Origin: Spirochaetota bacterium
Lineage (GTDB): Bacteria; Spirochaetota; UBA6919; CBDBPB01
NCBI GenBank assembly: GCA_965208615.1
Contig: CBDBPB010000001.1
Span: 224,001 to 288,000 of the forward strand
Reading direction: 5' to 3'
Length of the DNA: 64,000 nucleotides
Shown: one piece after another, positions 1-57,861 of the stretch
Layout of the letters: every line of letters starts with the position of its first letter
Numbering within the stretch: position 1 is the stretch's first letter
Notes under the pieces: model-generated
The model's input: only the letters and a program-made list of their open reading frames with translations
Database searches by the model: none
What the model was told of the DNA's origin: nothing
Translations under genes and position numbers: made by a program

Positions 1-120
1 TAGTACAGTCTCACCTGTTTTAATAAAAGATTTAACTCCGCCGTGAAGGTTAAAAACCTTTTCAGCTATATCTTTAATGCGGTAGTAGCCTTTAGTATAT
101 GTTATTCCAACATTAGTCAT
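1..120 (-). CDS. 5' end of a probable DUF362-domain protein, truncated by the window edge
   Basis: Manual translation MTNVGITYTKGYYRIKDIAEKVFNLHGGVKSFIKTGETVL resembles the GG..fi..G..Vl(lKPN) start of DUF362 proteins; AGGGTG RBS-like sequence upstream. Confidence 0.55.
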   Translation of the reverse strand, partial: MTNVGITYTKGYYRIKDIAEKVFNLHGGVKSFIKTGETVL

Positions 121-55390: not shown

Positions 55391-55494
55391 TAATTAGTAA
55401 GACCCCAGCCCAATGCTTTTTATAAAATGTAAATAAGAAATTGCAGTATGGAATGAATACTAAATTCTTAAAAGGTATGTCTATTTTTATCGAA

Positions 55495-55728
55495 TTATTT
55501 TATTATATCCCTTACTACTAACATTAGTATACCAACTAGTATGCTCGTTATCATTGCAACTATTATTTTCATCATACCTTTTAGTTCTGATATATCTTGC
55601 TTTAACTCAAGCTTGACATCCTTAATCTCGTTTTTAAGCTTCTCTACTTTGACATCAGTAATCTCAGCTTCGTGTATCTGGCTAGTAACTTCTCTTTTTA
55701 TCTCTTGCTTTAACTCTTCACTTATCAT
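55495..55728 (-). CDS. Small coiled-coil protein with C-terminal TM anchor (Bdr/DUF1640-like architecture), copy 1
   Basis: EIKDVKLELKQDISELKG heptads followed by a hydrophobic tail; GAGG RBS. Confidence 0.7.
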   Translation of the reverse strand: MISEELKQEIKREVTSQIHEAEITDVKVEKLKNEIKDVKLELKQDISELKGMMKIIVAMITSILVGILMLVVRDIIK

Positions 55729-55787
55729 CTTTGCCTCTTCTGGAAATGAATACTAAATTCTTAAGAGGTATATCTATTTTTATCGAA

Positions 55788-56075
55788 TTATTTTATTATA
55801 TCCCTTACTACTAACATTAATATACCAATTAGTATGCTTGTTATCATTGCAATTATTATTTTCATCATACCTTTTAGTTCTGATACGTCTTGCTTAACAC
55901 TTGATATTTTATTGTCGAGCTTATTTTCTATTGCTTTTAATTCTACTCTTAGTCTTGATTCAACTCCAGTTATCTCATTTTTAAGCTTTTCTACTTTAAT
56001 GTCAGTGATCTCAGCTTCGTGGATTTGGTTAGTAACTTCTCTTTTTATCTCTTGCTTTAACTCTTCACTTATTAT
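55788..56075 (-). CDS. Tandem copy 2 of the coiled-coil/TM protein (95 codons; ATA where copy 1 has ATG)
   Basis: Manual translation IISEELKQEIKREVTNQIHEAEITDIKVEKLKNEITGVESRLRVELKAIENKLDNKISSVKQDVSELKGMMKIIIAMITSILIGILMLVVRDIIK*; 18 codons longer than copy 1. Confidence 0.65.
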   Translation of the reverse strand: MISEELKQEIKREVTNQIHEAEITDIKVEKLKNEITGVESRLRVELKAIENKLDNKISSVKQDVSELKGMMKIIIAMITSILIGILMLVVRDIIK

Positions 56076-56235
56076 CTTTGCCTCTTCTGAAAATGCTTGC
56101 GGCTTTATAGTGAGAGTGTAGATACTCTTCTATTGCAAGCTTGATTAGCATTTAATGAATTCTTCCTTTTTGAGTTTATTTATGAAGTATAACATAAGTT
56201 GCCTTGTGTCTTTATCGATTACGACTATCTTTTAT
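56065..56235 (-). pseudogene. Possible decayed ribbon-helix-helix regulator gene
   Basis: KIVVIDKDTRQLMLYFINKLKKEEFIK, then after a frameshift MLIKLAIEEYLHSH; GAGGTG RBS-like site near 56255-56260 and TTGACT-17-TATATT at 56282-56310. Confidence 0.4.
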
Positions 56236-56323
56236 TTGTCTATTTTGTTAATTACACCTCTAACTTAATTACTATATTGTAAATATAGTATAATCTGTTA
56301 ATTTAGTCAATTCTATGTTATTA

Positions 56324-56819
56324 ATTGTTCTAGTAGTTAGGTACGGTTGAAACAAAGATATAAAAATATAATTTATTGGCCCCACAGCTAGTTTCAATTC
56401 CTTATAGGTACGGTTAAAACAACCAGCCTAAAAATCTATGACGCTTTTGAATCTTGTGTTTCAATTCCTTATAGGTACGGTTAAAACTACAAGCATATAG
56501 AGATAGATTAAGGTATAGATATTCGTTTCAATTCCTTATAGGTACGGTTAAAACCCAGTTTCTTTAATTGTAATGCCCATGTTGAAAATCTGTTTCAATT
56601 CCTTATAGGTACGGTTAAAACCATTATCGATTTTTGAGATCAGTGATTCTATTCTACGTTTCAATTCCTTATAGGTACGGTTAAAACTTGATTGCATTCG
56701 CATTCACATTCATCATCATCGTTAGTTTCAATTCCTTATAGGTACGGTTAAAACGAGTTAGTCACCGCCGTTATAACTAGCTAGCCTCTGTTTCAATTCC
56801 TTATAGGTACGGTTAAAAC
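56324..56819 (-). CRISPR. CRISPR array: 7 identical 30-bp repeats, 1 partial terminal repeat, 7 spacers of 35-37 bp
   Basis: GTTTCAATTCCTTATAGGTACGGTTAAAAC at 56391, 56458, 56525, 56592, 56658, 56725 and 56790; partial repeat ending 56353. The minus strand reads GTTTTAACCGTACCTATAAGGAATTGAAAC (ATTGAAAC handle typical of class 1, often I-B/III). Confidence 0.98.
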
Positions 56820-56964
56820 CCATTTACAACTTATAATATAACAATAAGTTATAATATACATTTCTTAAATTTATTCCCAAACCTCCGATAGTGTATTTTA
56901 AATAATTAATAACAAATAATAGCTAACACCATAGGTTTAAATAAAACTATTTTTTAAAAAAAAA
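56820..56964 (-). promoter_or_regulatory. CRISPR leader
   Basis: AT-rich non-coding stretch next to the intact terminal repeat, opposite the degenerate end. Confidence 0.7.
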
Positions 56965-56965
56965 G

Positions 56966-57086
56966 CTTTCAATTCCTTAACGGTTAATACCACTCCTTTA
57001 GAAGTTTTCCCTAAAAGAAGAACTTTCAATGCTCACTTGTCCTGAATGTGCATTTATAATATAACATTAGGGGTGTAAAAAAGCAA
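56966..57086 (-). ncRNA. Candidate crRNA-like RNA (pseudo-repeat / 32-nt spacer / pseudo-repeat) with its own promoter
   Basis: Minus strand: TTGCTT-17 nt-TATATT with TGn (57086-57058), ..ATTGAAAG (57030-57023), spacer 57022-56991, GTATTAACCGTTAAGGAATTGAAAG (56990-56966). Confidence 0.65.
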
Positions 57087-57295
57087 ACCCTTTATAAAAA
57101 ATAATGGAGCGGGGAGTACAAACAGATTTTCTTTTGATTTCTCTTATCTTATTATATTATAACTATTTAAGACCTATAAAACCATAAGCCTTAGCATTTT
57201 TCTTTCATCCAAGTTTTGTCAGACTTAATTTGCGAAATTATAAACGAGTATTTTAAATACTTTACTTTATATTTACTTTTTGCGTTTACCATTTT

Positions 57296-57861
57296 TCGTA
57301 CAGGGCAAAGATGCAAGATGACATTTTATGATAATTTAATGGCTAAGAAGCTTCATATAAACGATGACATATAACGTAAAGTAGATATATTTTAGATGCC
57401 TTTGTAGAACAAGAAAGTTAAAATATTGATGAGAAAGTTATTTCCTTGTATCAAGCAGGTTATCCTTGCATACTCTTTAAGTGCTGTCTATTTGAGTTAG
57501 CAATTAACACAAAATATCACTTTTTATGCAAGTAGTCATCACTTCGAGAGCTATTAAGAATCCCTTACTGAGACTAAGAATTATACACCTTTATTAAGTG
57601 TTAAGGAATTTGCTGTTCCATAAAGACTTAAAAGGGATTATTAGAATATTATATATTGACTTTATATGTAACTTTCTATGGAAATTAAAAATAATAAAAC
57701 AGTTTATACCTATAAAAATTCATAAGCTTAGAACCTCTCTACAATAACCTAATAAAAACTTTGATAACAACATAAACTTCCCCTTTAAATAATAGCCCTT
57801 TAACACTCTCATCTCTCTTTAAAAGTTATATTGACTTTACTATTCCTTTTGCCTTGTACGA
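57296..57861. mobile_element. Repeat family A inverted copy bounded by a 14-bp imperfect inverted repeat; possible non-autonomous or decayed element
   Basis: TCGTACAGGGCAAA (57296-57309) vs TTTGCCTTGTACGA (57848-57861), 13/14; interior homologous to 47010-47413. Confidence 0.5.

Follow-up and report, generated by a model that had tools for sequence, protein, structure and literature searches.

A candidate crRNA-like unit of CreR/CreA-type build beside the leader of a remote type I-B array in a Spirochaetota bacterium

The mini-unit and its surroundings

The subject of this work is a short repeat-derived element, here called the mini-unit, which lies upstream of a CRISPR array in a Spirochaetota bacterium (NCBI GenBank assembly GCA_965208615.1). 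The DNA analysed, or window, is a stretch of 64,000 nucleotides (nt), positions 224,001 to 288,000 of contig CBDBPB010000001.1, and coordinates given without a contig are positions in this 64-kb window. The locus is on the chromosome, with gyrA on one side and the RNase Y gene on the other, and its flanks also hold genes for a hexapeptide transferase, a cupin and a LOG-like protein. The mini-unit is read on the minus strand (57086-56956) and sits 146 nt upstream of the first repeat of array 1 (56324..56819, minus strand), which holds seven invariant copies of a 30-nt repeat (56391-56819) and seven spacers of 35-37 nt, and has a terminal repeat that is degenerate. An earlier note, made from the letters alone, had proposed that the mini-unit is a separately promoted CRISPR RNA (crRNA)-like unit of the CreA/CreR kind, presumably acting in trans.

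On the minus strand, the mini-unit opens with a -35-like hexamer, TTGCTT (57081..57086), in agreement with the consensus at 3 of 6 positions, followed after a 17-nt gap by an extended -10 element, TGt TATATT (57058..57066). Transcription is predicted to start near 57051-57053, which falls on base 1 of a 30-nt repeat-equivalent (57052-57023), the first pseudo-repeat. The initial 22 nt of this pseudo-repeat (57031..57052) are identical to the array repeat at 5 of 22 positions, a random level, and its end is the 8-nt handle ATTGAAAG (57023..57030), which matches at 7 of 8 positions the handle of array 1 and, also at 7 of 8, that of the second of the two type I-B systems of this genome (systems A and B; array 1 belongs with A). 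An 8-nt tag is present at the 5′ end of type I-B crRNAs in Clostridium thermocellum and Methanococcus maripaludis. A spacer-like stretch comes next (56991..57022), of 32 nt against the 35-37 nt of the array spacers, and then a second pseudo-repeat of 25 nt (56966..56990), which is the array repeat with T3>A, ACCTA deleted and C30>G. Its aligned bases are identical at 23 of 25 positions (10 of the first 11 and 13 of the last 14), and a single C separates it from a run of nine T (T9, 56956..56964), itself followed by A6.

Both pseudo-repeats are of the system A kind, in the 30-nt form used by array 1, so that the mini-unit consists of two repeat-derived sequences around a spacer-length stretch, outside the array and without a leader of its own. 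The letters quoted in the earlier note were all correct on direct reading of the minus strand, and the parts that it had claimed (TTGCTT-17-TATATT with TGn, a handle, a 32-nt spacer, a deleted repeat with two substitutions and a T run) are all present. A 30-codon frame that runs across the mini-unit was considered as a small protein and rejected, as it has no ribosome-binding site.

Controls for chance

In local alignment to the array repeat, the second pseudo-repeat scores 36, against a median of 20, a 95th percentile of 25 and a maximum of 29 for the best score per shuffle in 200 shuffles of the 1.17-kb region. When the whole genome was scanned with the repeat, it was the top repeat-like match outside the arrays; the other non-array matches score 28-32, and the highest of those (32) is inside a gene. 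The remaining parts were compared with their genome-wide rates. ATTGAAA[CG] occurs 210 times in 4.9 million positions (P ~4.7e-4 for one at the spacer's distance), T9 occurs 434 times in the genome (P ~5.3e-4 for one no more than 5 nt after the repeat copy), and TTGnnn-16..18-TGnTATAWT occurs 53 times (P ~3.3e-4 at the right place). Because they derive from genome-wide rates, these P values would rise several-fold in A+T-rich intergenic DNA, an effect too small to make the combined parts a product of chance. The anatomy of the mini-unit is non-random, and the unit is unique in the genome.

Counting against the observation itself, Rfam at E <= 1 reported the seven array repeats and not the deleted repeat copy. 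A search for further decayed repeats upstream gave a best candidate at 57868-57824, which scores 23, inside the shuffle range, and was discarded. RNA structure was likewise rejected as support, since no fold beats shuffles: the whole predicted RNA folds at -15.4 kcal/mol, no better than its shuffles (-17.2 +/- 2.8 kcal/mol), and the 32-nt stretch can form an 11-bp hairpin of -8.0 kcal/mol, which 27 of 200 shuffles equal.

Decay of the pseudo-repeats

The way in which the two pseudo-repeats have diverged can be read against the terminal repeat of array 1 (56353-56324), which keeps 15 of its first 16 nt and 3 of its last 14, and decays passively. The first pseudo-repeat is its opposite, with 7 of the last 8 nt kept and 5 of the first 22, that is, the reverse of passive decay. 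In the CreA RNAs described by Cheng et al. (PMC9458426; here and below, statements on published work refer to the portions of each text that were available), the 8 nt bound by Cas5 are conserved in the first pseudo-repeat, from which the motifs for Cas6 binding and for adaptation are lost, and the second pseudo-repeat is nearer to the repeat. The mini-unit has this feature of CreR and CreA RNAs, as its first pseudo-repeat keeps the 8 nt of the handle and, apart from these, has diverged further than the second. The first part of the repeat is stated to bind Cas6 (PMC9458426), and this is the part of which the second pseudo-repeat keeps 10 of 11 nt. Its missing 5 nt are from the middle, between the Cas6 binding site and the cleavage site; in the haloarchaeal repeat, the middle holds motifs needed for adaptation only (PMC9458426).

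Cognate Cas genes elsewhere in the genome

The earlier note had described a unit with no adjacent cas genes. This holds for the window, where no match was found to the Cas1, Cas6, Cas7 or DevR families nor, among strong matches, to the Cas3 C-terminal domain. The genome, however, is not devoid of cas genes: the family searches found one Cas1, two Cas6, two strong Cas3 C-terminal domains, one Cas_Cas7 and one DevR in it, and the cognate I-B effector genes lie with a sister array 59.7 kb from the mini-unit. They form system A, of type I-B, on the same contig as the mini-unit (C1, ~340.8-348.5 kb), in the order cas6 (minus strand), array 2, cas8b, cas7, cas5 and cas3. The cas6, cas8b, cas7 and cas5 genes are intact open reading frames (ORFs) with strong family matches (3.3e-111 to Cas_TM1802 for cas8b), and the repeat of array 2 is that of array 1 less one T. 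System B, also of type I-B, is complete (contig C2, ~25.7-34.0 kb; cas6-cas8b-cas7-cas5-cas3-cas4-cas1-cas2), and array 3, after its cas2, has a different repeat, ending ATTTAAAG.

The leader of array 1 (~93 nt, 56820..56912, minus strand) is 94% identical to that of array 2 and 84% to that of array 3, and holds a promoter-like site of its own, TTGGGA-16-TATATT (56880-56853, minus strand), found by a consensus promoter scan. The common leader lies at 56820-56912 in the window, at C1:341787-341879 and at C2:34034-34122. Since the leaders are alike although the two systems differ in their repeats, and only one cas1 is present in the genome, these data suggest that one adaptation module serves all three arrays.

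Farther upstream, the motif TGTTTGTA (57117..57124, minus strand) stands 31 nt before the -35 element of the mini-unit. It recurs at C1:341744, 342438 and 342513 (plus strand), once upstream of array 2 and twice upstream of cas8b, every copy being on the strand of its adjacent unit. These are 4 matches in 3,000 nt of CRISPR-associated noncoding DNA versus 0.15 expected, with 126 in the genome, for a motif that was picked post hoc. Two of the four copies are inside a duplicated element of ~40 nt (GTGTGATATTTATAAAC.TTTGTTTGTAT), which precedes both the array 2 leader and cas8b. From its positions, TGTTTGTA may be a site for a shared regulator.

Other features of the CRISPR loci were recorded in passing. 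Spacer 2 of array 1 (56688-56724) and, in the opposite orientation, spacer 4 of array 2 (C1:342106-342141) both contain a repeated GAATGC hexamer, and both may come from one invader bearing this tandem repeat. At the trailer end of array 1 (55452-56121) lie two tandem diverged gene copies, 91-95% identical in DNA, the product being a 77-residue coiled-coil protein with a C-terminal membrane helix and no Pfam match. On the other side, and divergent from the promoter of the mini-unit, a 27-codon ORF (57104-57187, plus strand) would encode the hydrophobic peptide MERGVQTDFLLISLILLYYNYLRPIKP, with no ribosome-binding site visible before it. The 230 nt upstream of the mini-unit hold only this ORF, and no recognisable CreT-like toxin gene was found beside the unit; the best match of the guide in those 230 nt covers 8 of 10 seed positions.

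A second mini-array and a dispersed repeat family

A whole-genome scan with both repeats disclosed a second mini-array, in system B, between cas3 and cas4 (C2:32125-32260; L019/L041). It is clearer than the mini-unit, its first pseudo-repeat keeping the last 15 nt at 15 of 15 and its second matching at 27 of 29 positions, around a spacer-like stretch of 37 nt (C2:32195-32231). It is flanked by a 13-nt direct repeat, GAGATTATATAGT, a duplicate of the sequence where the cas3 stop meets the cas4 start, as if the mini-array had been inserted there. Units of a crRNA-like kind occur, then, in this genome in the classical place, and the odds that the mini-unit is of the same kind are therefore raised.

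The first 15 nt of this second spacer-like stretch (all but position 6) match TTATTTAAAGTGATA, a sequence within a promoter-like module that precedes copies of a dispersed repeat, with the flank TTAGG (for instance at C3:160990, 161155 and 161321 on the plus strand and C1:11150 on the minus strand). Genome-wide, 4 sites match this seed at 13 of 13 positions, and another ~18 do so at 12 of 13; within the regions associated with the repeat, 13 of 13 was reached by only 7 of 1000 composition-preserving permutations, the hypothesis that joins this seed to the dispersed repeat having been formed post hoc.

A copy of the dispersed repeat also lies near the mini-unit, 230 nt away (57315-57770, plus strand; core of ~306 nt, 57366-57671), and fills most of the seemingly empty 870 nt upstream of it. 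The family has at least 40 full copies on contigs C1-C4 and C6-C8 and 55 element-associated regions in all, the copies being 80-88% identical to one another and without an Rfam match. Most full copies precede, by 100-500 nt, an unrelated housekeeping ORF of the same strand, and tandem modules of ~165 nt precede some of them. This family was considered as the target of the guide of the mini-unit and rejected, the best match being 11 of 13 with no enrichment.

Interpretation of the mini-unit

With confidence evenly divided, we favour the reading that the mini-unit is a degenerate mini-CRISPR, transcribed on its own, which would yield a crRNA-like RNA for the Cascade complex of system A in trans, as a non-cleaving guide or as a competitor. 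From the observed anatomy and the intact cas6, cas8b, cas7 and cas5, we infer that it is transcribed, processed and loaded, as well as any target that it has. Its most likely origin is a duplication of that unit of array 1 which is nearest the leader, as suggested by the second pseudo-repeat having the 30-nt form of the array 1 repeat. The transcript, on the minus strand, would begin near 57051 and end in part at T9, at a length of ~95 nt; it would comprise the handle ATTGAAAG, 32 nt of guide-like sequence and, at the 3′ end, a repeat part that includes the Cas6-bound bases. The Cas6 and Cascade proteins of system A, encoded 59.7 kb away, would take up this RNA as crRNA-like, and the loaded RNA would bind DNA by partial pairing without cleavage, as CreR and CreA RNAs do; alternatively, it may merely compete with the 14 array crRNAs for Cascade.

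We prefer this reading because the promoter-like site, the handle, the repeat copy and the T run are each rare and are arranged as in a transcription unit, because the first pseudo-repeat has decayed in the pattern reported for CreA, and because the predicted start coincides with base 1 of the repeat-equivalent. It is favoured as well by the cognate cas6, cas8b, cas7 and cas5 being open frames with strong matches, and by the recurrence at array 2 and cas8b of the TGTTTGTA motif that lies upstream of the -35 element. The CreA/CreR layout put forward in the earlier note is thus retained, and the action in trans that it presumed has become concrete, with system A 59.7 kb off; as to a target, no site with a clean seed was found in the cas or array promoters.

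The target search is the first of several results that weigh against this reading. Every genome position was scored against the 32-nt stretch, with positions 6 and 12 ignored, and 27 non-self sites match at least 12 of the 13 paired positions within the first 15 nt. Weak matches are common because the seed is T-rich, and 25 of the 27 sites are inside open frames of 90 codons or more. Among the six CRISPR-associated intergenic regions the longest exact match to the guide is 8 nt, and no cas or array promoter has a seed match of 10/10; nor was a guide match of about 11-15 nt next to a protospacer adjacent motif (PAM) found in a cas or toxin promoter. The earlier note had proposed to look for seed matches in promoters, especially that of the cas operon, and the genome search for them returned none that convinces and is a weak result. 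One of the two noncoding sites, C1:342054, is inside spacer 3 of array 2, with positions 1-5, 7-12, 14 and 15 matching and the flank CTG. The other, C1:330694, is 323 nt upstream of a molybdopterin oxidoreductase operon and matches 17 of the first 19 nt and 23 of 32 overall; with seed position 3 mismatched and a dispersed-repeat fragment adjoining, we treat it as chance. Both are near system A, 2 seen versus ~0.2 expected in those 19 kb, a comparison made post hoc and suggestive at best. Targeting of its own promoter was also rejected (8 of 10 seed positions with nothing beyond). A PAM could not be derived from the arrays, whose spacers have no second match in their own genome or in phage records, two of them having no exact match in viral contigs. 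The idea that the guide part is an ordinary spacer was set aside too, as it matches no viral contig, phage or plasmid.

Processing and genomic setting raise further objections. The first pseudo-repeat keeps none of its initial 12 nt and has lost every Cas6-binding base, and the predicted start is 21 nt upstream of the handle; for these reasons the freeing of the 5′ handle is the weakest link, the removal of a 21-nt 5′ extension being unexplained. The second pseudo-repeat retains its last 8 nt at 7/8, which a mature RNA of the CreA type can dispense with, and this fits a young relic equally well. The consensus promoter scan did not list the TTGCTT site because its -35 element agrees at only 3 of 6 positions, and T9 is not preceded by a G+C-rich hairpin or any stable terminator stem. 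The mini-unit is not in or directly beside its cognate cas locus, from whose cas6 it is 59,686 nt away. System A itself lacks cas1, cas2 and cas4, and its cas3 is split (C1:346052-348495; L010:5052-7495) into frames of 350 and 464 codons that meet at a T4/A5 run. Flanking the break, each half can be aligned to the intact Cas3 of system B, where the second resumes 45 residues later, and the split is either a real pseudogene or frameshift or else a homopolymer or assembly error. System A may, on these grounds, be decaying.

A DNA search of 40 relatives, the nearest of the same order only, returned short A+T-rich matches and none over the mini-unit. No RNA dataset is listed for 56250-57350, and contigs of the one DNA dataset listed are identical to the window over 56883-57531; it is probably the source sample and says nothing of variation. 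In the species genomes, a Cas8b protein scan found nothing and the exact repeat core matched no other species. Three metagenome contigs with the deleted repeat form were rejected as coding sequence, the form being in each case inside a gene encoding LTVKELK. A relative of Cas8b is present in 10 of 400 other genomes of the phylum, with a best identity of 34%; in the three of these ten that were examined, the arrays directly follow cas2 or cas4, and no mini-array scoring at least 30 was found within 20 kb.

Alternative explanations

Several of the objections just listed favour another account, possible but on the whole doubtful, in which the mini-unit is an inert remnant of array rearrangement, for instance the first unit, duplicated or displaced, from which a deletion or insertion removed the upstream repeat; its transcription, if any, would be incidental. 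Such debris would need no target and no PAM-flanked seed match in a promoter, and a single breakpoint 0-2 nt from the handle boundary would suffice to make it, which has about one chance in ten of falling there within a 30-nt repeat. It would also account for the last 8 nt of the second pseudo-repeat, retained although a mature guide needs none of them, and it suits a cognate system without adaptation genes and with a split cas3, as well as the absence of such a unit from all three distant I-B relatives. There is a precedent in Shmakov et al., who judged unconserved, target-less mini-arrays near type III arrays to be degraded repeats (10.1101/2023.03.03.530964). Under this account, however, a rare extended -10 motif (53 in the genome) that sets the start at base 1 of the repeat-equivalent has to be a coincidence, T9 one base after the second pseudo-repeat has to be another, and the decay of the first pseudo-repeat runs opposite to that of the array 1 terminal repeat. 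The promoter would, by contrast, be the functional part if 57086-57058 were a second upstream promoter of array 1, reading through a weak T run and adding to the pre-crRNA, with the pseudo-repeats as passengers. We think this unlikely. It shares the strand of the array and precedes the first repeat by ~240 nt, and termination may leak where no stable stem precedes T9; moreover, leaders conserved over ~93 nt only imply that each array has its own upstream control region, and the promoter-like element in the corresponding place at array 2 is a different one. Yet the conserved leader has a promoter-like site of its own, the survival of the handle and of that part of the second pseudo-repeat which binds Cas6 is left unexplained, and read-through would yield the same crRNA-like RNA if Cas6 cuts.

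A host-encoded decoy, an RNA that occupies Cas6 or Cascade without guiding it and so damps interference by the array crRNAs, a mode put forward for solitary repeat units and RNA anti-CRISPRs, would agree with the target search, in which none was found, and ATTGAAAG, one change away from the handle of each I-B system, might let it be taken up by both. RNA anti-CRISPRs known as Racr are said to be repeat-derived small RNAs that occupy Cas proteins. The mini-unit lies, however, on the chromosome between gyrA and the RNase Y gene and not on a phage or plasmid, and one small RNA against 14 to 18 array crRNAs is a weak competitor. CreR and crRNAs have been described as competing for Cas proteins (10.1101/2023.03.10.532045). 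The literature consulted on crRNA-like RNAs offered no example of a decoy encoded by the host, and we rate this explanation as very improbable.

If the reading of the mini-unit as a trans-acting crRNA-like RNA were extended to the second mini-array, both I-B effectors could be wired into host gene control by two crRNA-like RNAs, via the dispersed promoter-bearing repeat, a proposal that we regard as speculative and give little credence. The seed of the system B mini-array would fit the promoter-like module of the dispersed repeat upstream of housekeeping genes, and the mini-unit would be a trans-acting guide for a Cascade with a broken cas3 and no adaptation genes, in effect a natural CRISPR-interference device detached from its cas locus.

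Comparison with known crRNA-like RNAs

We regard the mini-unit as a candidate of CreR/CreA-type build and do not file it as a CreR or a CreA, because position at a cas locus and a match to a cas or toxin promoter both fail. It resembles the CreR RNAs of types I-B, I-E and V-A (10.1101/2023.03.10.532045) in its two degenerate repeats around a spacer-like stretch, the first of which keeps the 8 nt of the 5′-handle and the second a part of the 3′-handle. In the available text of that study, CreR RNAs bind with Cascade by partial pairing without cleavage and compete with crRNAs, and lie in or beside the cas operon, the promoter of which they match over 11-15 nt by a PAM; the mini-unit, on the contrary, is 59.7 kb off and has no such match. 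With the CreA of CreTA (PMC8501985, PMC9458426) it shares a first pseudo-repeat that is the more diverged of the two and keeps the Cas5-binding 8 nt, together with the lack of an adaptation leader and divergent repeats that resist recombination. Unlike CreTA as described there, no CreT-like toxin gene is recognisable beside it. The first pseudo-repeats of CreA have 11-16/30 mutual identity and are cut by Cas6, whereas that of the mini-unit keeps nothing beyond the handle; the second ones lose their last 8 nt, which the mini-unit keeps.

The mini-arrays of type I-B surveyed by Shmakov et al. (10.1101/2023.03.03.530964) are another close likeness, being two repeat-like sequences 15-60 bp apart, outside the array, with one of them degraded. 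According to the available portion of that survey, ~19% of bacterial I-B loci have a mini-array, nearly all of those described being in or next to the cas locus, mostly around cas6, and targeting the cas6 promoter by a typical PAM, unlike the mini-unit; there the upstream repeat is the better kept, and here the downstream one. A near-array position is nevertheless mentioned in it as a type I-B mini-array architecture. In Haloferax volcanii, the crRNA-like RNA s479 also lies beside an array and acts on non-cas genes in trans (10.1101/2021.02.19.431937); unlike the mini-unit, s479 is archaeal and sits between a CRISPR locus and a cas cluster. Likeness extends to the viral solitary repeat units, RNA anti-CRISPRs and Cracr RNAs (10.1101/2024.10.29.618823), small RNAs of repeat origin that tie up Cas proteins, with the difference that the viral units are encoded by phages or plasmids, whereas the mini-unit is chromosomal amid housekeeping genes and its guide has no match in the phage, plasmid and viral collections.

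The place of the mini-unit, beside the leader of a remote array, is unusual for the CreR/CreA kind. Discovery of regulatory crRNA-like RNAs has so far relied on matches, sought within cas loci, to a neighbouring promoter. A Cascade without adaptation genes and with an apparently broken cas3 is the setting expected for a purely regulatory CRISPR system. Should the mini-unit be a relic, it would be a clean example of a mini-array arising next to a leader, the raw material for regulators. If, on the other hand, it does yield a crRNA-like RNA for system A, then regulators of the CreR and CreA kind can exist apart from cas loci and may act on other genes, and surveys limited to cas loci undercount them.

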